Below, in pieces: positions 6,416 through 61,775 of a stretch of DNA of 64,000 bases. The notes under the pieces were generated by a model. It ran no database searches. It was not told where the DNA came from and saw only the letters and a program-made list of their open reading frames with translations. The DNA comes from Methanobacteriota archaeon (GTDB lineage: Archaea > Thermoplasmatota > Poseidoniia > Poseidoniales > Poseidoniaceae), in assembly GCA_002718195.1 (NCBI GenBank), contig PBDU01000017.1, positions 53,818-117,817 of the forward strand. The letters are read 5' to 3'. The stretch's first letter is position 1, and every line of letters begins with the position of its first letter. Made by a program: the position numbers and the translations under genes.

Positions 6416-9400
6416 TCAATTCTCATCGCCGAGAACTGAAATCAAAGAGGATTGCTCCTCTATTCTGGATTTGACTTCAGCTCTTCTTGACTTTCCAACC
6501 ATGAACGCAACTGCGGTTAGGGCTATGGTTAGCAGAATAACCAATCCAGGCAATGCTGCTGCACCTACAACAACACTTGCTTGATCTAGAACTGGATTAT
6601 TCGATGACAAGTCTTGGTTGACAGCTATGATGTTGTCTCCTTCTCTAGTCTCAACAATTTCGTTACTTGGATCAACTATGACGAAAACACCGTGTTTACC
6701 AGCGCTTACTGGGTAGAGAAGGTATATTTCTACAACTTTCTCGTCTTCAGCATCCGTTGGCTCAAGAATTGCTCCAACGACTTGTCTCATAACAACGTCT
6801 TCTTCTGCACAACCTTCCTTCTTTAGGTCAGCTAATGTGCCAGACTTGCTGTTTCTTGCTTCACAAAGAATGACTTCGATATCTGTGGCATGTGTGTTAC
6901 CATCATTTGCAATGACTACTTGGATCGGTATAGTTTCATCAACGCTTGCAGAATTTTCAACAACTGTTGCCTCCTTAACAACCAAGTTAGGTGCTCTTAA
7001 TCTCAGCGTAACTACTAACTCGTTTGTATCCAGCAAATCTCCTTCCCAAGATGGTGAATCATCGTAATCACCATCATCTTCCATGTTACCGAACTCAGAT
7101 ACTACCTTGAGCCCGATATCTGTTGTGATAAGAGGAGTATTTGGTGCAACTGTTACGATTGCGACCATCTCAATGGTTTCATACGCATCCATTCTTGGTA
7201 GTTGGTATCTGCCATCAGGGAAGACCACGCATATATCATCTGGGAATATGGTTTCATCTGCATCGACTTCTGTACAAGGTGCTTCTTGTGTTATCTCGGT
7301 ATTTAGTGCTACCAATTGTCTCCACTCAACACTTGAGCCAGCAAGTGCTCCCATTCCTGGTGTTTCACTCATGAAGTCATCATCACCAATTTCTTGTGTA
7401 GTGTGATTATTCAATGATGGTGTGTCTGGAACGTTACCGTTGTTGGTAATGTTGACCGTGAACTTGACATTTCTTCCTGGGGAAGTGGTCTTAATCGCAT
7501 TGTCAACGTTTGAATCCATGATAATTTGCATATCATGGAATTCGTTGACTTGGACATTGAATATCATCTGATCTCTTAGTCTGGTGTCTCTTCCGGACGA
7601 ATCAGGATATGCCTCTTCAGAGAATGCTTGGAATACTACTGTGTATTCTCCCGCTTCAACTCTATCTGGTATCTGCATTTCAATATCAAACTCCTGGAAA
7701 GTATCTCTGCTCAGTTCGGTGAGAACATCTCTAGGAACGTCGATTTCCCACAAGACGTCAACTCCATCTGCGTCTGTTACTCTCGCCAATCTGAAATCGT
7801 ACCTATCAGGGCCATTTCCATCGTTGACGACGGTAATTGGTAGTATGATATCCTCTCCTGGATTCACGCTCAAGTCTGTGCCAACTTCTGGGTCAACGCC
7901 TGCATTCAGAGAATATACGTGAATTACATTCGTGGATAAAATCACAGAATCAGAAATTCTTGGATATCCCTCTAAGTTGGCTTTTAGAGTTACAGCAGGA
8001 CCTAGACCAGAACTTGCATTAGTTGGTGCACAAACCTCGACTCTTACTTCATATGCGACCATATCTGCTCCGCCTGGTAATTCCCACAATCTTGGTTCAC
8101 TCATTGGCAGGGAGTTGCCTCCAGGTGCATCTGAGAAATCAACATCGACAGTCCAGTGTTCCTGCCTCCATGTGCTCATTTCCATGCCATCGGGCTTAGC
8201 CTCTGGAGCTCCTGGAGTTGTGAATACCAAGTTTCCAGAATCAAAGTTCTTGGTGACTTCAATCGGGTAGGTTGCACACTCGCCCGGCAGGACATATTCG
8301 TTCGTGTCAAAGATTTCGAAAACAATGTTTCCAGTTGATCTAATCGATACGAATACTTGCAATTCCAAAATATCGTATGTACCTTGTTGTACAGATTTAA
8401 CCGGCTCTCCTTCAGACCATCCCTTCAGATATATTACGAATAATCCAGGGTCCTCAGTAGTTGGAACGCTTACCTCTAGATTCTTGGTAATCGACTGTCC
8501 AGGGTCAAGTGATACCGATGTAGGGAAGTTTACTTGCCAACCGAATGGAAGAACCCACTCTGTTTGTCCCTCAAGGGTATTTGGATCCCAGAATATGAAA
8601 CTATCATACACGTTACCAGTGTTGGTTATTGTGATTGAAAATATAGCGGACTGTCCTTGTTCGATATCTGCCATGCTGTGAGATGTATCAAGATTGATTC
8701 CATGGACAACATCCATCTTTGTTAGAGTGGTTAGAACAGATTGTATGGCAGGATCGCTTGTTGATTTCGCTTCGACTTCAATCTGTGCAAATTCATCTCC
8801 GTTTGCCTGATAAATCGACGGGGCTCTTACACGCATGTAGAATCTGATATCTTCTCCACCCATCAAGAAAATATCCGTGTCAGGGAAGATAGCAGTGTGG
8901 TTGCTTGCAAAGAACAGTGTCGCAGTCCAGTTTTGTGGTACACCAGATGAAATGTTGAGGTTGTAAGTGTCGGCAACAAGATCAGTTGGTCCCGGAGTTG
9001 AGTTGTTAACGGTTAAGTTGTACAAGGTCTGCTCTCCTGGCTCAATAACGTGATAGTATGTTTCTCCAGCGTCAAATTCAACGTCAACCTGCCCGGTCAA
9101 GATGTGAGAGTAACAAATTGTAAATCTGTTATTATTTGGATTCTGATCACACAGGTTGGTATCGGACCAACCTACGTGAGCACCGCTTCCCAAATCGTTA
9201 GCGAATGCAGGCGGCATACCTATGGAAGGTTGCCTTCCGTTGTCAGGCCCTAGTTTGTTTGAATTCCACGATGTGACCGTGTATGTTTCCCATGGGTCAA
9301 GTGCTGTTTCGCCAGGTCCAGTGTTGCTAGTTGAATTTAATCTGGTGTAAACAATTTCTTCACTAGCGGAAAGGTTTCCAGAGTCAACCCATGCAACGTG

Positions 9401-11458
9401 GATATTGTTTTGATTATCTGTAAGCAATGCTGGGAATACGGAATTTCCTCCATATGGTGAGTTTGAAGGCAGACCACTGTTACCTTCTACGTTAGAGAGT
9501 GGAGTATCTTCAATTTGCTTGATAGCGTAGGTGGATAATCCCTCTTCTGCACCATCCCAAGCACCTGCCCCTTGCATTCTTAGCTTGGTGTAGTACACTT
9601 CGTAGTTGACATCCTTTTCAAACCCATAATCACGCCCGTCCATCCAAGCAATGTGTGTATTTCCTTGGTTATCAACGCCGATAGATGGGTGGAAGGAATA
9701 TGCATCGTCTATGGTTACACGGGTATCGTTTACAACGACTAGGTGACCATCAGCTGCAGCACCAGTATCTTCTGAATAAGTTCCTCCAGATGAATCGTGT
9801 CCGGGGTTTCCAGGAGTCCATGTTGGGTCATTGTTCATCTTAGCATATGGGTCGAGAATTGTGGTGTAAATCTCACGAGAGTTATTTGTAGAGATGTAAA
9901 CCATTGCTTCTACAAGCAAGTCCATGTTGTTTGAAGTTCCAGATGGGAATTCATAGACTTGACCGCCAGCATCAGTGTTTCTGATGGTGGATCCAGGACA
10001 ATTTCTGGATGACTGTGAAACTACTCCGTTTGGACATTGTGCAAGGTCCATGAAGTGAGACTCAACCGTGTTTGCGCCACCGTATGTTTGTCCATACATT
10101 CCTACTGGAACAACACCTGCTCTTACGCAGGAATCGTGTGCCTCTTCGATAGAGGCAGTATCATCAGCGCCAGTGGCAGGATCTCCGTCCTTTGGTCCTT
10201 CGTCAGAAATTGGCAGAACAATCTTTGTTGCGTTAGGGTTCCACTTGTGATCAGCACTGGTTGGAGGGTTTCCAGGAACATTTCCTGCAGCATCCTTCCA
10301 TGATAGACATGCCCAGTTTGTTCCTGGACCCCAGTTCTCAACGTGGTTGGATGGGTTGCCATTGTAGACTTCATTTGGAAGCTTTCTTAGTCCACCAGAG
10401 TCATCTCCAGGAGTTTGTCCCAATGGGTTAGTTCTTGGTCCGGAATTTTGGTTGTATGCAGCACAGTTTCCTTGGCTAGCAGCGCCAGGTAATGCGTTCC
10501 CCAAACCGTAAATAGTCTCATAAACAGTCATGTTTGCTTCACTCAGCATAGGCTTGATACCTTGGAAGTAACCACCACTAGCGAAATTACCTCCGTAAAT
10601 AACGGTACAAACATCAGCCCATTCGGAATACATGGAACCAGACGTGTCAACGATGAAAACAAGCTCTACCTTACCTCCTCTTGTGTCGTCCCATGCAATC
10701 TGAACATTGTCGTTAGCATCAACAACGATGTCAGGGTGTCCCTTGTGACCGATAATAGGAGTCAACAATGTGTCATCGAATAGGGTGATGACAGATGAGG
10801 AAGCAATGTCGGGTTGGAGCATTGAATAATAGATTTGAGGCTGGTTGAAGAACCTGTTAAGGTCATCGTAGTTGTCTTGCCATACTATGTGTAAGTTGCC
10901 TTGACTATCAACGTCAATTGCGGGCCAGTCTCTGTTTTGCGCTCTTTGAGAGATCACGGTATCGTCAATCGCAGTAATCGTTCCATCTGTTGTGGCTAGG
11001 CCATCTAGAGGTGCGTTGAATGGCGATAGAGCAGTGTACATGATCTTGTGCTGTCCGGATTTATCAGCCCAAACGATGTGAACCTTGTCATTCTCATCGA
11101 CGACCATGTCAGGATGTGCAATTTTGTGCAATCCTGAATTGGTAATTTGAGTAGCATCAATTAGTGTTTCGCCTCTTGGTGATAGCATAGAATAGTACAG
11201 GTGCTGAGAGTTTCTAGACCACGCAATGTGTACGTTTCCTTCAGAGTCTGAGTGGACTGCTGCTTGCATATCTGAAGAAGTTCCGCCGTTCACAACTTGA
11301 ACAGCTTCAGTAATTACAACTTGGCTTGCTTCAACGTTTTCGGTGTATACTGCCATTGCAGAAAAATAGGATAGCAGTAGAATCATTACAAGGGATACAG
11401 ATTTCGTAGTTTGTCTCATGTTGCGGACCTCCGGTAGTCTAACACCGTAAAGGCTCAA
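6416..11458 (-). CDS. very large secreted surface protein: signal peptide, repeated HIAW propeller-like modules with embedded vWA (MIDAS DTSGS) domain, CARDB-like NxG domains, C-terminal TM anchor
   Basis: N-term MRQTTKSVSLVMILLLSYFSAMAVY signal-like; seven copies of x-H-[IV]-[AVG]-W-x-D module; VELVFIVDTSGSMYSEW vWA MIDAS; ITITNTGNV / NITNNGNV / VIANDGNTHATDIEV / VVNDGNGPDRYDF CARDB-like motifs; C-term ALPGLVILLTIALTAVAFMVGKSRR anchor. Probable start at internal Met around 11419. Confidence 0.75.
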   Translation of the reverse strand: MSLYGVRLPEVRNMRQTTKSVSLVMILLLSYFSAMAVYTENVEASQVVITEAVQVVNGGTSSDMQAAVHSDSEGNVHIAWSRNSQHLYYSMLSPRGETLIDATQITNSGLHKIAHPDMVVDENDKVHIVWADKSGQHKIMYTALSPFNAPLDGLATTDGTITAIDDTVISQRAQNRDWPAIDVDSQGNLHIVWQDNYDDLNRFFNQPQIYYSMLQPDIASSSVITLFDDTLLTPIIGHKGHPDIVVDANDNVQIAWDDTRGGKVELVFIVDTSGSMYSEWADVCTVIYGGNFASGGYFQGIKPMLSEANMTVYETIYGLGNALPGAASQGNCAAYNQNSGPRTNPLGQTPGDDSGGLRKLPNEVYNGNPSNHVENWGPGTNWACLSWKDAAGNVPGNPPTSADHKWNPNATKIVLPISDEGPKDGDPATGADDTASIEEAHDSCVRAGVVPVGMYGQTYGGANTVESHFMDLAQCPNGVVSQSSRNCPGSTIRNTDAGGQVYEFPSGTSNNMDLLVEAMVYISTNNSREIYTTILDPYAKMNNDPTWTPGNPGHDSSGGTYSEDTGAAADGHLVVVNDTRVTIDDAYSFHPSIGVDNQGNTHIAWMDGRDYGFEKDVNYEVYYTKLRMQGAGAWDGAEEGLSTYAIKQIEDTPLSNVEGNSGLPSNSPYGGNSVFPALLTDNQNNIHVAWVDSGNLSASEEIVYTRLNSTSNTGPGETALDPWETYTVTSWNSNKLGPDNGRQPSIGMPPAFANDLGSGAHVGWSDTNLCDQNPNNNRFTICYSHILTGQVDVEFDAGETYYHVIEPGEQTLYNLTVNNSTPGPTDLVADTYNLNISSGVPQNWTATLFFASNHTAIFPDTDIFLMGGEDIRFYMRVRAPSIYQANGDEFAQIEVEAKSTSDPAIQSVLTTLTKMDVVHGINLDTSHSMADIEQGQSAIFSITITNTGNVYDSFIFWDPNTLEGQTEWVLPFGWQVNFPTSVSLDPGQSITKNLEVSVPTTEDPGLFVIYLKGWSEGEPVKSVQQGTYDILELQVFVSIRSTGNIVFEIFDTNEYVLPGECATYPIEVTKNFDSGNLVFTTPGAPEAKPDGMEMSTWRQEHWTVDVDFSDAPGGNSLPMSEPRLWELPGGADMVAYEVRVEVCAPTNASSGLGPAVTLKANLEGYPRISDSVILSTNVIHVYSLNAGVDPEVGTDLSVNPGEDIILPITVVNDGNGPDRYDFRLARVTDADGVDVLWEIDVPRDVLTELSRDTFQEFDIEMQIPDRVEAGEYTVVFQAFSEEAYPDSSGRDTRLRDQMIFNVQVNEFHDMQIIMDSNVDNAIKTTSPGRNVKFTVNITNNGNVPDTPSLNNHTTQEIGDDDFMSETPGMGALAGSSVEWRQLVALNTEITQEAPCTEVDADETIFPDDICVVFPDGRYQLPRMDAYETIEMVAIVTVAPNTPLITTDIGLKVVSEFGNMEDDGDYDDSPSWEGDLLDTNELVVTLRLRAPNLVVKEATVVENSASVDETIPIQVVIANDGNTHATDIEVILCEARNSKSGTLADLKKEGCAEEDVVMRQVVGAILEPTDAEDEKVVEIYLLYPVSAGKHGVFVIVDPSNEIVETREGDNIIAVNQDLSSNNPVLDQASVVVGAAALPGLVILLTIALTAVAFMVGKSRRAEVKSRIEEQSSLISVLGDEN

Positions 11459-11539: not shown

Positions 11540-12172
11540 TTAAGCCCATTCGCTAGGGTCGAAACTTGCCCCAAAAGACATCGTTTCATCAACCTCAATT
11601 TCATGTGTTTCAACCTCATCTTTTGCAGGGCTTTGTTTTGTTTGAACTTTTCTTGCTTTGTTCTCCCAATCATCTACAGGACCCGGTTTTCCTTTACCCG
11701 GGCCATATGAGAATTTGATTTCATGAATTAATGTTAATTTAGCAAGCCATAATTTTCTTAATGAATGCATTAATTCGTTTTTGCTTAATCCATCAAACCA
11801 AATCGGTAGGCTAACATTGAATGCCTGGAGTGATTCTTTTCCGGGTTTCTTGCCCATGTGAATCCCCCAATCAACTCCGCTTTTGATTAGGTTTAATCTC
11901 ATCTCATGCATCCATTCTTTCCAATCTTCTGTAGATTCTTTGATGTGAGTTTCCATCTCTTCTTGCTGCCCAATATCCACTCTGGTCATTGAACTGATAG
12001 CGACTAAATCTCGTCCTTTGGGAACCACGACTGCAAACATGTGACCTTGTTTTCCTCCGGGGTACTTTACAAGAAAGTGTGCTTCTGCCCTTTGATCAGG
12101 TTGCATCTTATAACTTAGATTCTCTTGTTTGAACCATTTTTTTAGCAAATCCACTGCATCGATGGGTCCCAT
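11540..12172 (-). CDS. hypothetical cytoplasmic protein (possibly DUF2299/YbjN-like)
   Basis: Clean 210-aa ORF, no TM; weak resemblance only. Confidence 0.4.
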   Translation of the reverse strand: MGPIDAVDLLKKWFKQENLSYKMQPDQRAEAHFLVKYPGGKQGHMFAVVVPKGRDLVAISSMTRVDIGQQEEMETHIKESTEDWKEWMHEMRLNLIKSGVDWGIHMGKKPGKESLQAFNVSLPIWFDGLSKNELMHSLRKLWLAKLTLIHEIKFSYGPGKGKPGPVDDWENKARKVQTKQSPAKDEVETHEIEVDETMSFGASFDPSEWA

Positions 12173-25470: not shown

Positions 25471-28400
25471 ATGAGCAAAGACTCGTCTGATAATTCAGAT
25501 GAGTTGATTCGAAAGAAAAATTTTGGTAGAGCAACAGGAATTGACCTATCAGCATTTAATCTAAATCAGGATGTTGTTGAGAATAAAGAACCAGAACCCA
25601 AGCAAGAAATTCAGGAGCCTGAAATGGACCAAGCGGTTGGTGAAGTATACGAATTTTTCACAGAGGGTAAACAGGTTACAGAGGATAATGTTGAACAATT
25701 CGATAGCGTGACGGATTTCGCAGTTCAAGGAGAGAGTAGAGTAAGCGGTGGCTTGCTTGTCATGATGATTCTAACATACTCCATATTCGCAACATTGATC
25801 GGAACTGTGGTTCCTCAATTTATTGCGGCACCTACATTAGTAGCTTTGATCGTTAGTGGATTATACCTTGGCGAGCGTTGGATTCCAAACCCAAACATGA
25901 GGCTACTCGGTGTTACTTGGGTTATCATTTCTATGAAAATATTCTATGGTTTAGCAATCGATGCTCATCATTGGGGTTGGTTAGATGGGTTTGGAGTGGA
26001 TGAGGATATTGTTCTTGGAATTTCATTACTAGCCATAGTTGCTGTAAATGTATTCATCGCCCAAAGGCACAATGAGGACGCAATTGCTGCTCAGGCAACG
26101 CTAGTTCTTCTTGCAGTAGGTAGTGCTGCAGGAGCGATTTATGGGGAAATGGGCGTTGCAGTTATGATTTGTCTAGGAGTGATCTTATTCCATGTGCTTG
26201 CCTTTTTGAGAAATTCAGGTAATCTTGCAAGCCTTGGCATAGCAACATCATATCTATGGGTCGGTTTACATGCAATCTCGCAAAATTGGAAAATTGCAGG
26301 CATTGATTTCGTACCGTTTGAGGATGATTTGCTATTGTTCATCTTAATGTTCTTTGTCACAGGTATAAATGCCACCGTTGCAACTAGATTTTCAAGCGAA
26401 AGAAATTGGTTCTCGGATGGCTTTGAGGCACTAGGTCTTGGTAAACCCGGTCTGTGGTCAGTTTCTGTTGGTCTGGGAATGATTGGGGCATTTTTGGCCT
26501 TAACTGCATTTAGGGACCAAACCGGTTACGCATTGGCGCAATTGAGCTTACTTGGGTCTGCGTTCAGCGCGTCTTATCTTGTTGTGAGAGGAGTTTCCTG
26601 GAATAAGGTGATTGCATTTGTAGGATATCCTGCACCGATCTTACTAGCAATTCTAATTTTGATGACAGGGAGGGATACTGAACTATTTGGAGTTCTTTCC
26701 GGTTATGATGTATATTCTGTACTAACAGTGGTTTTGACCGGCTTTATTTTACTTCAAAATCAGACCAATGTTTCTGATCAAGTCATTTGGGGAGTGGGCG
26801 TTTCAGCCGTGCTTATTTTGACGATTTTAATCCCAGCCGAGGATTATTCCGGGGCAAGAATGTTGCTATACTCCCAGGCAGTTGTTTGGATTGGCATGGG
26901 CGCGTTGGCGCTTTTGAGAAAGTCGGCTGGTATTGCTGGCTTTTCTGTATTAGGGCCTTGGATTTGGTTGCTAATGGTTGCAAGTGGAGCAGAGGATAGA
27001 ATCATCTCAGTGGAAATTCTTCCTACTAATTTCCCAGAATATGATATGACCGCTGTAATTATTCTCATGCTTGTTCAGCAATATACAGTCAACGCCAAAT
27101 TAGGATCTACTAACCTCAATTTAGCAGCCGCAGTACCGGGGTTGAGTGAATTCGGTGCAAGGCTAAGAGATTCTAACTTCATGAATCTCTGGAATATAGG
27201 ATTCATTGTAGCATTGATTTCAATAAGTGCAATAACTCAGCCAGAAAAAGTACCAGCAGTTGGATTAATTGTTGCATTGAATTTGTTAGTAGTAGCGCAT
27301 GCAGCTATGGCTTATTTCCAAATTCATAGGGGAAATCCAAGGACCTTACTGGGTATATGGGGGGCATTTACGATAGTAATTTCATGGGTTTTTGGATACT
27401 CTCCATTCTGGACTCTCGGCTTGTTTATTGCCGTTCTACTGTTACTTCTTGATTCGGATAGATTGTTGCGTACTGATATTGCAAAACTCGATTTGGAAGC
27501 AAAAGAAGCGATGCCAGCAAAATTACTTACCATGTCTATGGGTTTGGTGGCAGGATATCTAATCGTTCTAATTTTAGAGCCGCCCAAACAAATCTATCTT
27601 ACCGGATATGACCTAATTTCTGATCGCGCTCTAGAAGCACAGTATCTAGGGTTTATTTCAGTCGGAATGTTGCTTTTGTATCTCAGAAGAGCAGCGAAAT
27701 TGGAGAAATTATTACCTCCTACCATATCTGCAGTTGGAATGATAATCTGCATTGCTTTGGCTGGGGGAGTATATGATTCACAAGAACTTCAGACGCTTGC
27801 AGCGGTAGTCTTTGTCGGCTCTGGACTTTGGTTGATATCACAAGGAGAAATACGCTCTTCAATGCGGTCTTTGGCAACAATTAACGAAAGATTACAGAGG
27901 CACCAGCTAATGTCCGAAGTTAATTACATGGAGTCAACTGTTGATGTTAGGCAAGATTCAAATCAACCCCCTAAGAGTCAACCAGTTCCAGAAACAGTGT
28001 TGAATGCGTCTCAAATACAAACAGAAGAAGTATTCGCAGCACAGCCCGAGCCACCTGGCGACTTTGAAGTTAGCACACCTTCAATACAAGCATTTGATGT
28101 AAGAAGTATTGAACTACTTGAAAAGCAAAAGAAGCGCGCTAAGCGTAGGTCAGTTGAAAGTGAGTATGACCTAATAGTCGGTGACATAAGTTACAATCCG
28201 ACAATCGTTATCTTATTCTTAGCAGTGTTGCAGTTATTTGGAATACTTGTTGCTTACAGCGGAACTAGTACTACGTTTATTCCCATTCTCGTAGTAGGTA
28301 CAATATCCGTCATGCTAATATTTGTAGCAAAACAAAGGGCTAAGTCATTCAGTCTTCGTTTGCCGGATTTATTAGGTCTCGAAGCTCCAATCGCAGCCTC

Positions 28401-29385
28401 AATGATAGGGCTTTCAGTAATTCTGTTGGCTGGCAGGATTGGATTAAGCCCAGTCTATATTGACGATCAACTAGATAGTATGTTTCTATTAGTGTGTTTA
28501 TCTGGATTAGCAGCTATAAACCTGATCGGTTTTTCAGATAAGAACCTCAGGTTATTGAGCTCATTAGAAGGTGTTGTTGGCTTGTATGCATTTGTGAGAA
28601 TAATCGGTTTATTTGCAGGAGGAGAAATGCCAATTCCATTCCGCATTAATCCCTTTGAAAATCCAATTTCATGGTCTGTTCCAATGCTAACCACTGAGAT
28701 ATTTCTCATAGGTGCTGCTGTTCTGTTTTGGAGTATTGAATCAAAGCATTTTGCTGAAGGGAGAGAAGATGTTAGGGGCGCAGGCGGCAGAATTGGTTGG
28801 TTTGCTCTGATTTTCATTCTCTCTTCTGGAATTGCCTCTTTGATTGCCTTAGTTTGCGTACTGAATACAGGAATAAAATGGAAACAACCAGCAGTTGTTT
28901 TGTCCACCTTTGTTTGTGTGCCCGCTTCGGTTTCACAACTACTATTCTGGCTGGAAGAATATATCCAATTCATAGAACCACTAGATAGATGGCATGTCTC
29001 AATTGCTTTCGGAGCAATATCTATGATGTCTCTTGTATATGTTATCAAAGAAAAGCTATCATTATGGCTTTCAACTTCAATTTGGGCAACTCACCTTCTG
29101 CTTGCATTTGCATCTTTCACTGGATTTGGATACAGTGGAGTTGTGGTGGCAATGTTGGTTTTGTCAGCATGCGCTTGGATACCCGGAGTTCTTACAATGC
29201 GCCGTGGTTGGAGATTGTTTGGAATGGTGGATTTGGTAATTGCATGGACAGTTATGGCTTCCGAATTGATGAATGGAGCCAGTTCAATTCAGGCATTGGT
29301 CATGTTGACAGCGACGATAGTTCTGCTCAGTGTGATTACTTACCTGACCCAATCACGAGAACAAGATATCATGGAATCATCATGA
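25471..29385 (+). CDS. giant polytopic integral membrane protein (1304 aa, roughly 30+ predicted helices), function unknown
   Basis: Continuous ORF with periodic hydrophobic 20-aa segments throughout, acidic N-terminal cytoplasmic region and one approximately 130-aa basic/polar central loop; no catalytic motif recognised. Confidence 0.6.
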   Translation: MSKDSSDNSDELIRKKNFGRATGIDLSAFNLNQDVVENKEPEPKQEIQEPEMDQAVGEVYEFFTEGKQVTEDNVEQFDSVTDFAVQGESRVSGGLLVMMILTYSIFATLIGTVVPQFIAAPTLVALIVSGLYLGERWIPNPNMRLLGVTWVIISMKIFYGLAIDAHHWGWLDGFGVDEDIVLGISLLAIVAVNVFIAQRHNEDAIAAQATLVLLAVGSAAGAIYGEMGVAVMICLGVILFHVLAFLRNSGNLASLGIATSYLWVGLHAISQNWKIAGIDFVPFEDDLLLFILMFFVTGINATVATRFSSERNWFSDGFEALGLGKPGLWSVSVGLGMIGAFLALTAFRDQTGYALAQLSLLGSAFSASYLVVRGVSWNKVIAFVGYPAPILLAILILMTGRDTELFGVLSGYDVYSVLTVVLTGFILLQNQTNVSDQVIWGVGVSAVLILTILIPAEDYSGARMLLYSQAVVWIGMGALALLRKSAGIAGFSVLGPWIWLLMVASGAEDRIISVEILPTNFPEYDMTAVIILMLVQQYTVNAKLGSTNLNLAAAVPGLSEFGARLRDSNFMNLWNIGFIVALISISAITQPEKVPAVGLIVALNLLVVAHAAMAYFQIHRGNPRTLLGIWGAFTIVISWVFGYSPFWTLGLFIAVLLLLLDSDRLLRTDIAKLDLEAKEAMPAKLLTMSMGLVAGYLIVLILEPPKQIYLTGYDLISDRALEAQYLGFISVGMLLLYLRRAAKLEKLLPPTISAVGMIICIALAGGVYDSQELQTLAAVVFVGSGLWLISQGEIRSSMRSLATINERLQRHQLMSEVNYMESTVDVRQDSNQPPKSQPVPETVLNASQIQTEEVFAAQPEPPGDFEVSTPSIQAFDVRSIELLEKQKKRAKRRSVESEYDLIVGDISYNPTIVILFLAVLQLFGILVAYSGTSTTFIPILVVGTISVMLIFVAKQRAKSFSLRLPDLLGLEAPIAASMIGLSVILLAGRIGLSPVYIDDQLDSMFLLVCLSGLAAINLIGFSDKNLRLLSSLEGVVGLYAFVRIIGLFAGGEMPIPFRINPFENPISWSVPMLTTEIFLIGAAVLFWSIESKHFAEGREDVRGAGGRIGWFALIFILSSGIASLIALVCVLNTGIKWKQPAVVLSTFVCVPASVSQLLFWLEEYIQFIEPLDRWHVSIAFGAISMMSLVYVIKEKLSLWLSTSIWATHLLLAFASFTGFGYSGVVVAMLVLSACAWIPGVLTMRRGWRLFGMVDLVIAWTVMASELMNGASSIQALVMLTATIVLLSVITYLTQSREQDIMESS

Positions 29386-49398: not shown

Positions 49399-52062
49399 AT
49401 GCATAGAAGGCAAATCGCTATTTTGAGCGTTTCAGCCTTGTTGCTATTTTCGTTATCTAATTTGCTAGCAGTCCATCAAATTACGGACCAAGACTATCTC
49501 GATTTTCCTCAAAAAATAGTATCAAACTCCGAGACCAACGCGGAATTACTTGGCTGGGCAAATTCTGCAGCTGGTTTTGGCCAGGATAACGTATACGATG
49601 CCCACGTGGACATAGAGGGTTTCACCTACCTAGTTGGATCTTATACAGATTGGATGGGCTTCAATGAACAAGTCGATGGCATTACTTCTGAAGGTGCGCT
49701 AGGGGATGTGGACATGTTCCTTGGGAAAATTGACAAGAATGGAGTTTGGCTAAATGCCACCACTGAAGGGAGTTCATCAGGTAAAGATACTATTCAAGCA
49801 ATCGACAGCTTCGAAAATGGAGACTTATTGTTGGCTGGAACATTTTGTGAAGGAACTGCCGGAATCTCTTGTAACCTAACATTAGGGGATATGCCGTCTC
49901 TTGAAAAAATATCCAACAACGATGAAGGTAACATATTCGTTGGCAGATACACAACCACAGGGGCCTGGCAGTGGGTTCAAAATATTGGAAACCAATATCC
50001 AGTTGAGATTATCGGAGCGGCTGTGAATTCAGTCCAAAATTCCGTTATTGCATTTACTCACTCGGAAGATATACCAATTAATGAGGCAGTCATCAATGGA
50101 ACACCCAATTATTCCCTTAGCATCTTAGAACTAGATTTCGCGGGTAATTATTCACAACACAGCACATTGGATGCATCACAGGGTTTTGAATCTCAAGGGG
50201 ATCTATGTCCGGGGAACGATGGTGAAACCTTTACTTTGTTTGGTTTTTCAGGAGTCCTCACCTCTCAAGAACTTTCAATTTCTAGTAATGGATGGAGCGA
50301 TATCGGTCTTACAAAATTCAGTTCAGGCTCAATTGAATGGATAAGCACAGGTGGCAGTGAAGAATCGGATATGCCGGCTTCCTGCTCCTATTCACCACTA
50401 GGAAAAATTGCGATGAGTTCGACAATAAGCGGTGATTCATTATTTGGATCTTTGGAGATTACCAATATCTCAAGTCGAGCAATGTCTGTAGTTGTAGCCG
50501 ATATGAGTGGTGAGTGGAAAGAATCGGCTTCACTGGATTCAGTTAACTATGAATCAATATCGGATATTGAATTTGATGTTCAGGGTGGATTAACAGTCCT
50601 CGGCTCAATTTCGTCAACTCTGACCATCGGTGATGATGTTCTAGATGATTTGGATTCGAGTAATGACATATACAGTAATGACGTTTTCTTGGGCTATCTC
50701 TCGAATAGCATGGAGTGGGAATGGGCACTCAATGCTGGTGGAGAAGGAAATGATGTAGGACGCTCCTTATCCAAAGGCCCAGATGGCTCTTGGGTCATCA
50801 CCTACATCTTCACCGATGAGAATACTATGGCAGGTCATGATGTAATTCACCAAGGATCAGAAGATGTTGGAATTTGGAGGTATGATACAGACATCGATGG
50901 TGATGGAATTCTAGATGGGGCTGATGTTTGCCCCAGAATACCGAATCCAGACCAAGCCAACCTGGACATGGACGAGTATGGGGATTTATGTGACCTGGAC
51001 GATGATGGAGATAGGATTCCAGATGAATTAGACGATTGTCCACTTGGTGAAACAGGCTGGGTGAGCCTTCAAAGCACTGACCATGATTCAGATGGTTGTA
51101 GAGATGCAGGTGAAGATCTTGATGATGATGAAGACAGAATTTTTGACCATAATGATGCTTGTCCATTGGGCCCTGTTGGCTGGATATCTACTCCCGAGGT
51201 AGATAGGGAAGGAGATGGTTGTGCAGATTTTGATACCGATGAGGATGGTTTTGTAGACCAAGCAGACAATTGCCCAAACCTACCCAATCCAACACAAACA
51301 GACCTAGATAATGATGGTAAAGGAGATCCATGTGATGAAGACGCAGATGGAGACACAATCAATTTGCCCCAAGACAACTGTCCTATGGATTTTGAACCCT
51401 GGATTAGTACAGAATTAATCGACCATGACAGAGATGGCTGCAGGGATTCAACAAATGATTTGGACGATGATGGCGATAATATCCTTGATGGCTTTGATGC
51501 CTGTCCAGTTGGTCAGACAGGATGGCTCTCAAACGATTCAACCGATTTAGATTCAGATGGATGCAATAATGAAGAAGATCTAGATGATGATAATGATGGT
51601 TTCAATGATGATGTGGATAACTGTCCTTTGGGGATTACCGGGGTTGCTCCACTCGGACAAGATCGTGACAATGATGGTTGCATAGATTCTGTAGAGGATT
51701 TAGATGATGATGGGGATGGTGTAGAGAATGATGCCGATCAATGTCCAAGAACGCCACTGATAGGTTCTGAGATCACGGCATATGGGTGTGCTTGGATTCA
51801 ACTGGATGATGATGGGGATGGCGTGTCTAACCTCGATGACCTTTGCCCTTCGTCCTCACAAGGAGCCCTGGTGACTCTAAATGGCTGTGAGATAATCCAA
51901 GAAACTAATACAGAGGTCAGTCCATCTTCATCTAATTCAGCCCTATATGTTGTTATCGCACTATTGTCGGTGGTAACAGGGGCAATCATTTTGAAGATAA
52001 AATCAGACAATTCAACAGGTGTGGAAAAAACAGTTCAATCCATTCCTAAAGAAGAGGAATGA
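49399..52062 (+). CDS. secreted protein with thrombospondin type-3-like Ca-binding repeats and C-terminal TM anchor
   Basis: Signal-like MHRRQIAILSVSALLLFSLSNLLAV; over 12 D-x-D-x-D-G-x-x-D-x-x-D/C units (DTDIDGDGILDGADVCP, DLDDDGDRIPDELDDCP ...); C-term LYVVIALLSVVTGAIILKIKS. Confidence 0.8.
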   Translation: MHRRQIAILSVSALLLFSLSNLLAVHQITDQDYLDFPQKIVSNSETNAELLGWANSAAGFGQDNVYDAHVDIEGFTYLVGSYTDWMGFNEQVDGITSEGALGDVDMFLGKIDKNGVWLNATTEGSSSGKDTIQAIDSFENGDLLLAGTFCEGTAGISCNLTLGDMPSLEKISNNDEGNIFVGRYTTTGAWQWVQNIGNQYPVEIIGAAVNSVQNSVIAFTHSEDIPINEAVINGTPNYSLSILELDFAGNYSQHSTLDASQGFESQGDLCPGNDGETFTLFGFSGVLTSQELSISSNGWSDIGLTKFSSGSIEWISTGGSEESDMPASCSYSPLGKIAMSSTISGDSLFGSLEITNISSRAMSVVVADMSGEWKESASLDSVNYESISDIEFDVQGGLTVLGSISSTLTIGDDVLDDLDSSNDIYSNDVFLGYLSNSMEWEWALNAGGEGNDVGRSLSKGPDGSWVITYIFTDENTMAGHDVIHQGSEDVGIWRYDTDIDGDGILDGADVCPRIPNPDQANLDMDEYGDLCDLDDDGDRIPDELDDCPLGETGWVSLQSTDHDSDGCRDAGEDLDDDEDRIFDHNDACPLGPVGWISTPEVDREGDGCADFDTDEDGFVDQADNCPNLPNPTQTDLDNDGKGDPCDEDADGDTINLPQDNCPMDFEPWISTELIDHDRDGCRDSTNDLDDDGDNILDGFDACPVGQTGWLSNDSTDLDSDGCNNEEDLDDDNDGFNDDVDNCPLGITGVAPLGQDRDNDGCIDSVEDLDDDGDGVENDADQCPRTPLIGSEITAYGCAWIQLDDDGDGVSNLDDLCPSSSQGALVTLNGCEIIQETNTEVSPSSSNSALYVVIALLSVVTGAIILKIKSDNSTGVEKTVQSIPKEEE

Positions 52063-58334: not shown

Positions 58335-61300
58335 TCATAGATTATCTAAGTCTATCATACCAGGCATGGACGCTCTTTCTTCCTCGACTCTCTGCTGTTC
58401 ATATTGTTGCCAAACCGGAACTTGTTCAGGTCCAGTCCAGCCCAATTCTCTAGCTTTTTCCAGGTCTCCCTGACCGACGTAATAGTCAATCCATTCCTGT
58501 CTTCGCAACTCTTCATCTTCCATGGCCATATTGACCATTCTTTCCTCTGCTCTTCTTTTAGCACTCTTTCTGCCGGCAATTTGTTTTGAAATCATAGCCA
58601 CGAATATGAGGGTAAGCATCAGTGCAGCAACTCCACCAAGAACTAACATTCCAGTATCGCTCCCGCCTGAGGTAGAATCTACTTCTCCATCTCCTGTATT
58701 CTGATTCAGAGTCGGGTCTTCAGTGATCAAGCAGGTTACTTGACCTCTGATTCCCGCACTAATTGAGGGGTCCCATTGGCAAGGGTCATTGATATTGGAA
58801 ACACCATCTCCATCATCATCTCTGCAACCGTACCTATCAATAGTTGAGTTGCCCCACTCATTCCTACAATCATCGTTCTGGTATCCAGTGAAGTTATCTC
58901 CGAAACCATCTCCATCCGCGTCTCTGCTTTGAGATGTCCTCAACGGGAAAGCGTCAGGAATTGCACCTTCGGGATTATCTCCAACTCCGTCTCCATCCAT
59001 GTCGGACCATTGCGATACGGTATCGGGGAATGCGTCTCCGTTTTGCTCTCTGATTGTAATTAGATTACCAGGATTTTCTTCATCCTCAATGGTTTTGTTA
59101 ACCCAAGTATAATTGTCACCATATCCATCGCCATCAGAATCTTCCCACTGTGTTCCATCGTTAGGGAATGTATCATCATCATCGGCATAACCGTCTCCAT
59201 CTGCATCTGGACAGCCTTGATAGTTATTCATGGTAGCTTCTCCGTATACGTCTGGACAATCATCACCACCAGGAATGTTTTCATCACCATATCCATCTCC
59301 GTCAGAATCAGCCCACTGGAACGGGTCGTTGGGGAATGCATCTAGCGGATCAGTGACTCCATCAGCATCTGTATCAGGGCAACCTCTTGTTAGAGGATTG
59401 TTGGATGTTCCATAGGATTCAGGGCAAACATCCGGCTCATTTCCGTCCTGATTGTCTCCATATCCGTCACCGTCCGTGTCATCCCACTGAGTAGGGTCTG
59501 CAGGGAATCTGTCTCCATTATTTCCACCAGGGTTGTCACCTCTGCCATCACCATCAGAGTCTTCCCATTGACTTGCATCATCAGGGAACTGATCAGGATT
59601 GTTTCCATCTGGGTTGTCCCCTCTGTTGTCTCCATCTCTATCTTCCCACTGGGTTGAGTCATCAGGGAAAGGGTCTCCAGCATTTGAGTAGCCGTCACCG
59701 TCTCTGTCAGGGCATCCTAATCTATCTTCAGTTGATGTTCCTGAATCACCAGGGCAATCGTCAGCATTATTTCCGGATTGATTGCTTCCAAAACCATCTC
59801 CGTCATCATCGCACCACTGTGTTGGGTCATTAGGGAATGCGTCTGCTCCGTCATTACAAGGGCTGAGAGTAGGCCAACCAGGGGTTGGGTCTGACCAGCC
59901 ATCGCCGTCAGAATCAGGGCAACCAAGTCTATCAAATTGTGAATCTCCCCATGCATTTGGACAACCATCGGGTCTGCTACTGGCTTGCTCATCACCAACC
60001 CAATCTCCGTCAGAATCAGCCCACTGGGTTCTGTCTAGAGGGAATACGTCAACATTAGTTGCGCCAGTAACTAATTCTCCTGGCCACTCCATTGGTCTAA
60101 TGTTAAGCCAAGAGTTGTTAGCAAAGTTGTCTCCATAGCCGTCTCCATCAGTATCGTTCCATTGAGTTGGGTCATTAGGGAATGCATCTCCTCTCTGATT
60201 TATGTGATATTGCTGATTATCCACGTCATACAGATAGTTGTCTCCATAGCCGTCCATGTCCATATCTGCCCATTGTTCGGGGTCAGATGGCCAAAGGTCC
60301 CCCTCGTCTGACCACCCGTCTCCATCTGCATCAGGGCAGCCGAACCTGTCTTCAGTTGAATTACCCCAAGTTAGGATGCAAGCATCTGGTTGGAAAGCGG
60401 GCTCAGGATTGTCACCAAAACCATCGTTATCAGTGTCATTCCACTGGGTTGGCTCATCAGGGAATTGATCTACCTTGCCATCTCCTTGGTCTGTAGTATT
60501 CCAACCATCTTGGTCCGGGTCAATGTTAGCAAACCAAATGTAGAAACCTTCATCATTTCTTCCAAAGGCTTGTGCGATATTCATTCCAGTTGGGGACCAT
60601 GAAACACCATTGTTTTGTCCGCAGTTGTTACCATTACCAGTGCTCGTGCAACCTCCCGGTCTTGGTTGGCTGAAAGAGTCGATAGATTGCCCGGACGCAA
60701 CATCAAAAATCAAAGCCGTTGCGCCATCGCTGTTATACCATCCCATACCGAATATTACTTGAGTGCTGTCTGGGGAAAAATCGGTTCCGTAGCAAGATGT
60801 AGATCCAATCTTAGTCCACGAATTTGTCCAAGTCGAAGTTTCATACATTCTTAGTTTGGAATTTCCAGAATTCTGGTCATATCCCTCACACACAGAAATG
60901 TATTCACCATCATGCGACCATGCTATAGAATTGACAGTACCAGTAGGAGATGATATTGATTGAATTGTTGACCAATCTGTTGTATCAACAACGTAAGCGT
61001 CACCAACTGTACCAATTGCTAGCTCTCCATTTGGTCCGAAGTCAACAGAATGGAATCTGTCTTCGCTTCCTGGATTTAGATTTTGCAATACATTAGCGTT
61101 TGAAGTATCAATTACTCTAACTACTCCGTTAGTACCGCCCCAACCGCTTCTGCCAATTGCAATTGCAGCCATGCTTCCGTCTTCTGATAGGTCGATGTCA
61201 TAAGTGAAATCACCTCCGCCGACATCTGCTGAAATTGACCCATGGATATCGGTTAGGTTGCTTGCATGGTATAATTTTACGGTGTCATCATCGCCAGTCA

Positions 61301-61775
61301 CTCCGATGTATCTTCCATCACCTGACCAAGAAACAGACCCAACATCCCCTCCACTGTAAGCAACAACAGACCTGTCATTTACTCCAGTGCTTGCATTCCA
61401 GACTCTTAGATATCCATTTTCATCTGCAGTCGCAACCCATTCGCCATCTGGCGAATAATCTGCATCATTGAAATCATAATTTTGCGGTATCGAAAATTCC
61501 TTTTGGAAATTTGGATTTGTGCTTGTCCATGAATCAGCCCAGTCGCTAGTCCCATCCCCGTCTCTGTCTGGACAACCTACTTTGTCTATGGTCGAAGTCC
61601 CAGCAGCATAAGGGCAATCATCACTTGCATCATCAGTTCCATCCCCATCAGTGTCAACAGCAGAAACAGTTGGAAGGATAACAGAAGCAACAAGGATTGC
61701 AACTAAAAAAGCAGGCAAAAAATGACCTTTTCTGTCTTCATGCGAAATAGCCATAAAACTCCGAGCATGCATCAT
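58335..61775 (-). CDS. giant surface protein: N-terminal signal/anchor, WD40-like beta-propeller region, long array of thrombospondin type-3-like Ca-binding repeats, C-terminal TM helix plus approximately 80-aa cytoplasmic tail
   Basis: AFLVAILVASVILPTVSAV; propeller-like repeats (SPDGEWVATADENGYLRVW, SWSGDGRYIGVTGDDDTVKLY, AWSHDGEYISVCEG); over 20 D-x-D-G-D-G units; C-term GMLVLGGVAALMLTLIFVAMISKQIAGRKSAKRR. Confidence 0.8.
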   Translation of the reverse strand: MMHARSFMAISHEDRKGHFLPAFLVAILVASVILPTVSAVDTDGDGTDDASDDCPYAAGTSTIDKVGCPDRDGDGTSDWADSWTSTNPNFQKEFSIPQNYDFNDADYSPDGEWVATADENGYLRVWNASTGVNDRSVVAYSGGDVGSVSWSGDGRYIGVTGDDDTVKLYHASNLTDIHGSISADVGGGDFTYDIDLSEDGSMAAIAIGRSGWGGTNGVVRVIDTSNANVLQNLNPGSEDRFHSVDFGPNGELAIGTVGDAYVVDTTDWSTIQSISSPTGTVNSIAWSHDGEYISVCEGYDQNSGNSKLRMYETSTWTNSWTKIGSTSCYGTDFSPDSTQVIFGMGWYNSDGATALIFDVASGQSIDSFSQPRPGGCTSTGNGNNCGQNNGVSWSPTGMNIAQAFGRNDEGFYIWFANIDPDQDGWNTTDQGDGKVDQFPDEPTQWNDTDNDGFGDNPEPAFQPDACILTWGNSTEDRFGCPDADGDGWSDEGDLWPSDPEQWADMDMDGYGDNYLYDVDNQQYHINQRGDAFPNDPTQWNDTDGDGYGDNFANNSWLNIRPMEWPGELVTGATNVDVFPLDRTQWADSDGDWVGDEQASSRPDGCPNAWGDSQFDRLGCPDSDGDGWSDPTPGWPTLSPCNDGADAFPNDPTQWCDDDGDGFGSNQSGNNADDCPGDSGTSTEDRLGCPDRDGDGYSNAGDPFPDDSTQWEDRDGDNRGDNPDGNNPDQFPDDASQWEDSDGDGRGDNPGGNNGDRFPADPTQWDDTDGDGYGDNQDGNEPDVCPESYGTSNNPLTRGCPDTDADGVTDPLDAFPNDPFQWADSDGDGYGDENIPGGDDCPDVYGEATMNNYQGCPDADGDGYADDDDTFPNDGTQWEDSDGDGYGDNYTWVNKTIEDEENPGNLITIREQNGDAFPDTVSQWSDMDGDGVGDNPEGAIPDAFPLRTSQSRDADGDGFGDNFTGYQNDDCRNEWGNSTIDRYGCRDDDGDGVSNINDPCQWDPSISAGIRGQVTCLITEDPTLNQNTGDGEVDSTSGGSDTGMLVLGGVAALMLTLIFVAMISKQIAGRKSAKRRAEERMVNMAMEDEELRRQEWIDYYVGQGDLEKARELGWTGPEQVPVWQQYEQQRVEEERASMPGMIDLDNL

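Follow-up and report, generated by a model that had tools for sequence, protein, structure and literature searches.

A candidate Marine Group II surface receptor or adhesin with a vWA-fold domain predicted inside a blade of a seven-bladed propeller

A long minus-strand gene in a 64,000-nucleotide stretch of DNA, hereafter the window (the whole stretch that was analysed), encodes a protein of a Poseidoniales (Marine Group II, MGII) archaeon that, on balance, we take to be a surface receptor or adhesin of the type I membrane glycoprotein-like kind. Its head is predicted to be a beta-propeller into which a divergent vWA-fold domain is spliced, and this head is followed by a stalk, a single transmembrane helix and a short conserved tail.

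The maximal open reading frame covers positions 6416..11458 of the minus strand (1680 codons plus stop), and every motif quoted in an earlier note on this DNA was found in it. That note described a 1680-aa protein, which is correct for the open reading frame; the coding sequence itself, however, is probably 6416-11419 (minus strand). A ribosome-binding-like GGAGGT (11427..11432, minus strand), read directly, lies 7 nt upstream of the ATG at 11419-11417, and the orthologues start at, or just past, the Met equivalent to Met14, mostly with MRQ. Met14 is therefore probably the true start, giving a length of 1667 aa, not 1680. Residues 14-44 (11327..11419, minus strand) form a Sec-type signal peptide, with MRQTTK, a hydrophobic core whose hydropathy maximum lies at residues 19-39, and V-E-A followed by S. 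Cleavage would be expected, and the A-x-A-like site is kept in orthologues as VSA/ST, AEA/NT and AKA/SE. We considered a class III (pilin-type) signal peptide from the 'K-S' ahead of the hydrophobic core and rejected it, because the A-x-A site is conserved, the 'KS' is missing in orthologue P0121, and the protein is already anchored by its C-terminus. From the signal peptide, six invariant cysteines in the inserted domain, a strongly acidic composition (D+E = 238 vs K+R = 87) and 14 N-x-S/T sequons, the protein is predicted to be extracellular.

The repeat cores reported in the earlier note were located at residues 76, 126, 189, 252, 601, 686 and 760. The protein contains 7 copies of the [HQ][IV][AVG]W core, whereas 20,000 shuffles gave 0.05 on average and never more than 3, and an HMM made from the seven repeat units matched those seven only when the whole protein was searched. 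The proposal of at least seven repeats of about 45 aa thus holds for the number, but the spacing is 50-85 aa. The beta-propeller suggested on that basis was recovered in an AF2 model spanning residues 40-830 and in fold searches, as a predicted closed ring of seven blades with four strands each, whose consensus sequences are, in order, 'hPDhhV', 'HIAWxD', 'xIYYxxL' and 'I.DDT'. Propeller part 1 (residues 45-260; 10679..11326, minus strand), modelled with pLDDT mostly 86-96, comprises an N-terminal strand, all of blades 1-3 and, from blade 4, strand A (HPDIVV) and strand B (VQIAWDD). Part 2 (residues 528-795; 9074..9877, minus strand) comprises, in the same model, strands C (REIYTTIL) and D of blade 4 and blades 5-7. 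The modelling thus supports a head that is a seven-bladed beta-propeller with BNR/sialidase-type blades. This blade type is shared with the BNR/sialidase-like propellers (BNR_4, BNR_2, SBBP and the 'PDIAV motif-containing lipoprotein'), and repeat-only relatives pass all three of the former models. In contrast, the window protein itself stays under the curated cut-offs, both for BNR_4 (E 0.011, 15.5 bits, cut-off 27.3) and for the NCBIfam PDIAV motif-containing lipoprotein (NF053835; 47.2 bits, cut-off 90). A classical Asp-box (S-x-D-x-G-x-T-W) is seen in none of its blades, its signal peptide lacks a cysteine lipobox, and it does not carry the catalytic signature of sialidases.

Between the two propeller parts lies a domain of residues ~261-527 (9878..10678, minus strand). 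The earlier note had put it after the fourth blade; it is instead within blade 4, between strands B and C, and in the AF2 model the displaced strand C resumes at residues 528-535, directly past the insert. The vWA fold (Rossmann-like alpha/beta) is read solely from the predicted structure, which supports it, and a MIDAS signature in the insert agrees with the vWA domain named in the earlier note. In sequence searches, Pfam VWA models (PF00092, PF13519, PF05762 and others) did not match the window protein at E<=10 and faintly matched 2/19 family members (E 0.09-0.15), while no VWA match came up in Pfam or NCBIfam when the whole protein and the excised insert were scanned. Likewise, a family profile of the insert found no vWA sequence among PDB sequences, and phmmer and profile hmmsearch with the head and the insert returned chance matches only (E>1) from the same set. 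Compared with extracellular MIDAS vWA domains (BatB, vWF A1/A3, collagen VI, CMG2/TEM8, TRAP), to which it is 10-15% identical, the insert is about 100 aa longer than a classical vWA, escapes Pfam, NCBIfam and PDB-sequence profiles, and carries its own motifs WGPGxxWAC, DHxWNP and EAHDxC together with the six invariant cysteines, which probably form three disulfides.

Within the insert, VELVFIVDTSGSMYSEW lies at residue 264 and ISDEG at residue 417. By position relative to the strands and by conservation, we assigned D271, S273, S275, T380 and D419 as the putative MIDAS set. Loop 1, D271-T-S273-G-S275 (10634..10648, minus strand), directly follows strand beta1 (VELVFIV). The family signature W376-GPGTNWAC-384 (10307..10333, minus strand), in which WGP and WAC are invariant across homologues, lies at a helix start, and its T380 is the putative MIDAS threonine, a likely counterpart of the classical vWA 'GGxT' motif. 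S418-D419-E-G (10196..10207, minus strand) is found at the end of strand beta4 (KIVLPI), with D419 as the putative third MIDAS loop; this residue is retained in 12/12 DxSxS-bearing lineages and missing in 5/6 lineages without DxSxS. Such a site would be expected to bind a divalent cation. Several homologous lineages without the MIDAS nevertheless retain the insert domain and the invariant WGPGxxWAC, DHxWNP and EAHDxC motifs, indicating that the core function of the family may not be metal-dependent binding.

The stalk (residues 796-1622; 6593..9073, minus strand) is divided into about six segments, which from their sequence are probably beta-sandwiches. Four of them, residues 916-1040, 1181-1305, 1306-1485 and 1486-1620, bear an NxGN motif (N-x-G-N) of the CARDB kind, at residues 946, 1212, 1339 and 1518. 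Pfam NPCBM_assoc (33.5 bits, cut-off 24.4, residues 963-1009) and CARDB (23.5 bits, cut-off 22.7, residues 1490-1611) both matched above their thresholds, in line with the three or four CARDB-like domains described before. Segments 916-1040 and 1181-1305 aligned with each other in hhalign at 89% probability; the two NxGN segments other than those with the NPCBM_assoc and CARDB matches are related by motif and weak hhalign scores only. DUF7507 matched the stalk slightly under its cut-off, as did NCBIfam choice-of-anchor T (NF041740, choice_anch_T) at residues 858-1002 (64.5 bits, cut-off 70).

Hydropathy and the tails of orthologues placed a single transmembrane helix at residues ~1630-1655 (6494..6571, minus strand), with ALPGLVILLTIALTAVAFMVGKSRR at residue 1635, followed by a 25-aa cytoplasmic tail, KSRRAEVKSRIEEQSSLISVLGDEN (6419..6493, minus strand), that is conserved in orthologues. 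The protein does not end at GKSRR, as had been stated, since 21 more residues (AEVKSRIEEQSSLISVLGDEN) follow, also conserved in orthologues, and the motif R..EV..R[IL].EQSSL[IV]SVL is kept across Poseidoniaceae. One C-terminal helix with a cytoplasmic tail was found in 13/14 homologues examined; the tails of these 13 measure 23-175 aa, and those of the closest are conserved at 23-25 aa. Pfam gave no match to the cytoplasmic tails of seven homologues. The earlier note had read this C-terminus as a PGF-CTERM-like sorting signal, which would be cleaved by an archaeosortase and replaced by a lipid anchor. The window protein does resemble PGF-CTERM/archaeosortase A substrates, archaeal surface proteins in which basic residues come after a hydrophobic helix at the C-terminus, in that Pro-Gly-Leu opens its helix and a basic cluster (KSRR) stands just past it. 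However, the defining features of these substrates are not found in it. The NCBIfam PGF-CTERM model (TIGR04126) did not match the tail, scanned alone with and without the last 21 aa, even at E<=10. Moreover, the PGL gives way to PSA, PGA, PFA or PFM in orthologues, the helix is followed by a conserved tail rather than by a few terminal basic residues, and no Thr/Ser-rich linker precedes it. Exosortase and archaeosortase families had no match in the 40 window ORFs scanned (64 kb of genome), taken from 48 of at least 150 aa, the other eight of which overlap larger ORFs. We consider the sorting-signal reading very improbable.

At E<=1e-5 we retrieved 481 relatives, of which the best 120 are full-length with 70-93% identity; where these 120 carry a source name, it is a Poseidonia, Poseidoniaceae, Poseidoniales or Thermoplasmatota MAG. 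The full-length orthologues, at 71-93% identity, are all labelled 'hypothetical' or 'CARDB domain-containing'. A WGPGTNWAC-type pattern retrieved the insert domain from 468 stretches of GTDB species-representative genomes, and the best 80 of these are on Poseidoniales-type contigs. Within the window there is no paralogue. The search for a conserved partner gene or operon was negative; the gene has housekeeping genes around it, and its surroundings vary from lineage to lineage. In MGIIa the order is acyltransferase, DUF2299, the surface-protein gene, ArsR and topoisomerase VI, while the distant lineages L082 and L083 have their own synteny without the MGIIa context. Among the 40 window ORFs for which codon usage was computed, this gene has the lowest effective number of codons, 42.2, and the highest CAI against three reference genes only (ribosomal-protein/RNA-polymerase-subunit); this codon bias is a weak hint of high expression. 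The window also encodes a thrombospondin-repeat surface protein. A 1304-aa ORF at 25471-29385 was considered as a second stalked surface protein and rejected, as its product is a polytopic membrane protein. Neither the Rfam scan nor the tRNA scan of the window gave a match. In the literature on the MGII S-layer, on metaproteomes and on 'integrin-like' archaeal proteins, we found no account of this family.

Adhesion has been proposed as a Poseidoniales trait (PMC6461757). In the model that we favour, the Sec signal peptide would be removed and the mature chain would open with the seven-bladed propeller, with the vWA domain and its probable disulfides emerging from the B-C loop of blade 4, presumably on what is conventionally called the 'top' face of a propeller. 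Sea water would supply the Mg2+ or Ca2+ at the MIDAS, and a ligand carried by a particle, an algal surface or another cell would complete the metal coordination with a carboxylate or some other acidic group; the propeller face adjoining the MIDAS may provide further contacts. A stalk of about six Ig-like/CARDB-like beta-sandwich domains would raise this head some tens of nanometres off the membrane, where the single helix would anchor the protein and leave the short conserved cytoplasmic tail open to an intracellular partner. Both the kind of ligand and a role in adhesion are inferred here.

The main rival to this model is that the window protein is a major envelope (S-layer-type) protein, in which the helix and stalk would tether a lattice-forming head, and the vWA/MIDAS and propeller would form metal-bridged lattice contacts instead of binding an external ligand. 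The high conservation (71% identity across the family), the place in a syntenic part of the core genome and a codon bias that is the strongest of the window are no less expected of a structural envelope protein than of an adhesin. Several archaeal S-layer proteins are large and acidic, with Ig-like domains and a C-terminal helix, and the window protein has the same traits at ~1670 aa. Its group-wide occurrence in the 468 stretches, the lack of a paralogue in the window and the partial synteny with housekeeping neighbours also speak for this role, to which the codon statistics add their weak hint. On the other hand, we found no description of an MGII S-layer in the literature, the codon-bias comparison is based on only three reference genes, and fold searches with the propeller-plus-vWA head matched no S-layer protein. 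We regard an envelope role as possible, clearly behind a receptor or adhesin. A carbohydrate-active enzyme tethered to the surface (sialidase, glycoside hydrolase or lyase-like), with a catalytic propeller and the vWA and stalk as accessories, is by comparison quite unlikely. The Foldseek matches to the propeller do include the sialidases NanB and NanC, GH145, PL25 ulvan lyase and PL42, the repeat relatives match GH43 models besides BNR_2 and BNR_4, and MGII archaea are considered to break down high-molecular-weight organic matter. NanB and NanC, too, are propellers with an inserted domain; in the window protein, though, the inserted domain is a predicted vWA, and the sialidase hallmarks named above are missing.

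Among known systems, the closest parallel to a receptor of this layout is the integrin alpha-I subunit (e.g. alpha-M, alpha-L), which likewise has a seven-bladed propeller head with a vWA domain and its MIDAS (putative here) spliced in, stands on a leg of beta-sandwich domains, crosses the membrane in a single helix and ends in a cytoplasmic tail that is short and conserved. The adhesin or integrin-like layout seen in the earlier note is borne out in this domain order, but as an analogy only. Integrin blades are of the FG-GAP/Cage type and those of the window protein BNR-like ('HIAW'); an integrin alpha chain pairs with a beta subunit, whereas no candidate partner gene is conserved beside the window gene; and the one host is an animal, the other an archaeon. 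PilY1/PilC-type type IV pilus tip adhesins of bacteria also combine a vWA with a seven-bladed-type propeller in an adhesion protein. In PilY1, however, the N-terminal vWA and the C-terminal propeller stand in tandem, not one nested inside a blade of the other, and the protein sits on a pilus instead of being anchored by its own membrane helix. That the window protein is a true homologue of integrin alpha subunits is hardly credible: there was no FG-GAP or integrin-alpha Pfam match, many unrelated seven-bladed propellers outscored integrins in the fold search, and the blades belong to the BNR-like repeat class. In addition, the integrin I domain, through whose MIDAS ligand is bound, is inserted between blades 2 and 3 (PMC3192720) rather than in the B-C loop of blade 4, and alpha-I domains originated in chordates only (PMC3192720, PMC4237329). 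The likeness is best read as convergence.

If the predicted structure is right, the window protein would be a second, independent case of a seven-bladed propeller that encloses a vWA domain. To our knowledge, which is not exhaustive here, that arrangement is otherwise known from chordate integrins. It is a more speculative idea, and an improbable one, that MGII archaea arrived on their own at a functional counterpart of the integrin alpha-I receptor, with ligand binding at the MIDAS-vWA coupled through a rigid leg and the helix to motifs of the tail. The cytoplasmic tails do carry lineage-specific conserved motifs (AEQSSLxSVL, DGYEWL...W, IGDLxDDLL), which would then recruit intracellular partners. 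If true, this would mean transmembrane adhesion signalling in an archaeon, and the same protein could also be the dominant envelope protein of this group, one of the most abundant among the archaea of the surface ocean.

Marine Group II, which has never been cultured, ranks with the most abundant archaea of surface sea water. The family described here is order-wide, has no name in any source, and its first 800 residues are missed by domain databases, which makes it a concrete candidate for the main MGII adhesion or envelope protein. New family models made from the divergent vWA insert and from the 'HIAW' blade could improve the annotation of marine metagenomes, and the surface protein itself is a likely receptor for MGII viruses.

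The 1680-codon ORF at 6416-11458 (-) encoding the propeller-vWA protein was confirmed in the window, and all strings quoted in the earlier note were found in its translation, including VELVFIVDTSGSMYSEW at residue 264, ISDEG at residue 417 and the PGL-helix-KSRR stretch at residue 1635 (residues are counted from the first codon of the ORF). Since the orthologues examined start at the equivalent of Met14 or just after, with MRQ in most, and a GGAGGT lies 7 nt upstream of the Met14 ATG (11419-11417), the protein is most likely 1667 aa long. GKSRR, previously taken as its end, is followed by 21 more residues, AEVKSRIEEQSSLISVLGDEN, which are conserved in orthologues.

The seven proposed repeat cores were located at residues 76, 126, 189, 252, 601, 686 and 760, with a spacing of 50-85 aa rather than the suggested unit of about 45 aa. 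The core [HQ][IV][AVG]W occurred seven times in the protein, whereas 20,000 shuffles averaged 0.05 occurrences and never exceeded 3, and an HMM made from the seven repeats recovered exactly these and nothing else in the protein. An AlphaFold2 model of residues 40-830 from a 22-sequence alignment (mean pLDDT 82.4, pTM 0.83) showed seven blades of four strands in a common pattern, with the consensus 'hPDhhV' for strand A, 'HIAWxD' for B, 'xIYYxxL' for C and 'I.DDT' for D. By sequence, the blade is probably of the BNR/sialidase-like class. The window protein stayed below threshold with BNR_4 (E 0.011) and with NCBIfam PDIAV_lipo (47 bits, cut-off 90); relatives carrying the repeats alone passed the BNR_4, BNR_2 and SBBP thresholds and are joined to secreted modules (LamG, subtilase, CARDB, T9SS sorting domain). 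The modelled blades and this blade class together support the propeller.

In the model, strands A (residues 239-246) and B (VQIAWDD, 252-258) of blade 4 are followed by the alpha/beta insert (residues ~261-527), and strands C (REIYTTIL, 528-535, fitting the 'IYY' consensus) and D (574-580) come only after it, indicating that the insert is nested in the B-C loop. The predicted position is within blade 4 and not behind it, as the earlier note had it. Pfam and NCBIfam gave no vWA match for the insert at E<=10, the insert family profile matched no PDB sequence, and faint VWA matches (E about 0.1) appeared in just two of 19 family members. The sequence methods used do not detect the vWA relationship of this predicted fold. 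The insert exceeds a classical vWA domain by about 100 residues, and its six invariant cysteines (C284, C332, C384, C444, C475, C487) and own invariant motifs (WGPGxxWAC, DHxWNP, EAHDxC) are retained even in lineages lacking the putative metal site (MIDAS). In the window protein the MIDAS signature is complete, with loop 1 (D271-T-S-G-S275) after beta1, putative T380 within WGPGTNWAC, where a helix begins, and putative D419 in S-D-E-G after beta4. DxSxS and D419 are retained jointly in 12 lineages, and D419 is lost too in five of the six lineages without DxSxS. This pattern would be expected if the metal site is functional in the window's branch, although no more than one or two evolutionary events may account for the losses.

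The stalk (residues 796-1622) scored above the cut-offs of NPCBM_assoc (33.5 vs 24.4 bits) and CARDB (23.5 vs 22.7 bits), with DUF7507 and 'choice-of-anchor T' just under their cut-offs. Four segments carry an N-x-G-N motif (residues 916-1040, 1181-1305, 1306-1485 and 1486-1620), in agreement with the CARDB-like domains of the earlier note, and two further segments, at residues 800-915 and 1041-1180, received no domain assignment. Alignment of segment 916-1040 with 1181-1305 by hhalign reached 89% probability, and other pairings were weaker. One hydrophobic helix (residues about 1630-1655) precedes a 25-aa tail, and a single helix with a tail of 23-175 aa was found in 13 of the 14 homologues examined (C-termini compared include P0122-P0127, P0133, P0135, P0137 and P0139). 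These tails matched no Pfam family and end in conserved motifs that differ by lineage. The motif is AEQSSL[IV]SVL in MGIIa, the group containing the window's lineage, and DGYEWL..G..YYR....EW..W in some other lineages; IGDL[IL]DDLL forms the very last residues in MIDAS-less lineages. The C-terminus had been likened to a PGF-CTERM sorting end. However, the PGF-CTERM model (TIGR04126) did not match it, 'PGL' is replaced by PSA, PGA, PFA or PFM in orthologues, and no exosortase or archaeosortase was found among the 40 window ORFs scanned (chosen from 48 of at least 150 aa by setting aside eight that overlap larger ones). Together with the conserved tails after the helix, these results lead us to reject the archaeosortase reading, and the protein is predicted to be an ordinary type I membrane protein.

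At E<=1e-5 the protein has 481 relatives, the best 120 of them full-length proteins of 1654-1679 aa with 70-93% identity. Where a source is named, it is a Poseidonia, Poseidoniaceae, Poseidoniales or Thermoplasmatota MAG, and the product is called only 'hypothetical' or 'CARDB domain-containing'. A search of GTDB genomes, one for each species, with the profile of the insert domain confirmed 468 stretches, the best 80 of which all lie on Poseidoniales-type contigs; contig CAXAGT010000004.1 shares 99% identity with the query. Four contigs with the gene (L005, L012, L032, L056) come from public MAGs carrying bacterial labels (Salinimicrobium, Salipiger, Rhodobiaceae, Verrucomicrobiales), most likely through binning contamination. 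Used as query in an exhaustive HMMER search, residues 40-830 gave 1622 cluster representatives at E<=1e-3, of which hundreds match the repeats alone and about a dozen, at 31-59% identity, cover most or all of the propeller-plus-insert span; named members of the latter are 'hypothetical' proteins of Poseidoniales, Euryarchaeota or Thermoplasmatota MAGs. No description of the family was found in the literature, and it has neither a name nor a domain model over its first ~800 residues.

The window is of archaeal origin and contains genes for topoisomerase VI (A and B), the large primase subunit and the DP2 subunit of DNA polymerase II. Neighbours of the propeller-vWA gene are housekeeping genes (topoisomerase VI, ArsR-type regulator, DEAD/DbpA helicase, DUF2299, acyltransferase, SdhA-like flavoprotein). 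Acyltransferase, DUF2299, the propeller-vWA gene, ArsR and topoisomerase VI keep this order on a 1.59-Mb Poseidoniales contig (L001); distant homologues lie in another context, conserved among themselves. The 210-aa DUF2299 protein (11540-12172, -), directly upstream on the same strand, has the same position on L001 and is absent beside distant homologues. No partner gene could be inferred from the contexts compared, and the window holds no paralogue. Immediately upstream of MIDAS-less homologues, loci L082 (6448-7965) and L083 (1-783, overlapping the homologue by 8 nt) carry a gene without Pfam match whose 78% identity between loci is far above the surface protein's own conservation. This gene, missing from the window's context, may encode a partner in those lineages. 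Elsewhere in the window, an 887-aa protein (49399-52062, +) combines thrombospondin type 3 repeats (PF02412, E 4e-28) with a membrane helix at the C-terminus and a tail rich in acidic residues, and is a predicted second adhesin-like surface protein; such proteins have been cited as adhesion evidence in Poseidoniales (PMC6461757). A 1304-aa ORF without Pfam match (25471-29385, +) has many hydrophobic segments, which identify its product as a polytopic membrane protein, and a hydrophilic stretch of some 90 aa near residues 800-890. The 1146-aa ORF at 58335-61775 (-) has an N-terminal WD40-type propeller and no C-terminal membrane helix, and is followed on the opposite strand by an AAA_16/HTH protein (61879-63429).

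We favour, with moderate confidence, a surface adhesin or receptor. The protein would be exported by Sec to the cell surface, where the multi-domain stalk would project the head of propeller and insert, and the helix would anchor it. A cation held at the MIDAS would let the head bind a ligand, the adjacent propeller face may offer a second binding surface, and inside the cell the conserved tail may interact with a partner in the cytoplasm. The main, clearly less probable alternative is a major envelope or S-layer-type protein, supported by wide conservation across the order, the core-genome location, and the size and acidity of the protein (238 D+E vs 87 K+R). Its codon bias, the strongest of any window ORF analysed (ENC 42.2, lowest of 40; CAI 0.71, highest among non-reference genes, with S13, S4 and RNA polymerase subunit D (Rpb3-like) as reference), also points this way and hints at high expression, although this test is weak. 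Both readings could be true at once. A catalytic role of the propeller is unlikely, and a PGF-CTERM substrate, given the C-terminal results, is very improbable.

The integrin likeness proposed in the earlier note stands for architecture, since integrin alpha-I subunits also have a MIDAS-vWA nested in a propeller, followed in the same order by legs, a helix and a short tail. The integrin I domain binds ligand through its MIDAS (PMC3192720), and I domains originated in chordates (PMC3192720; PMC4237329). However, the archaeal blades are not FG-GAP, the host is not an animal but an archaeon, and the insertion sites differ (blades 2 and 3 flank the integrin I domain, PMC3192720, whereas the archaeal insert sits in the B-C loop of blade 4). 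The likeness is therefore best read as convergence, and a true integrin homologue is the least probable of the readings considered. Nesting also distinguishes the protein from bacterial PilY1, which has a vWA domain and a propeller in tandem. What is new is that known folds would be assembled here in an unreported arrangement, as a surface adhesin or receptor.
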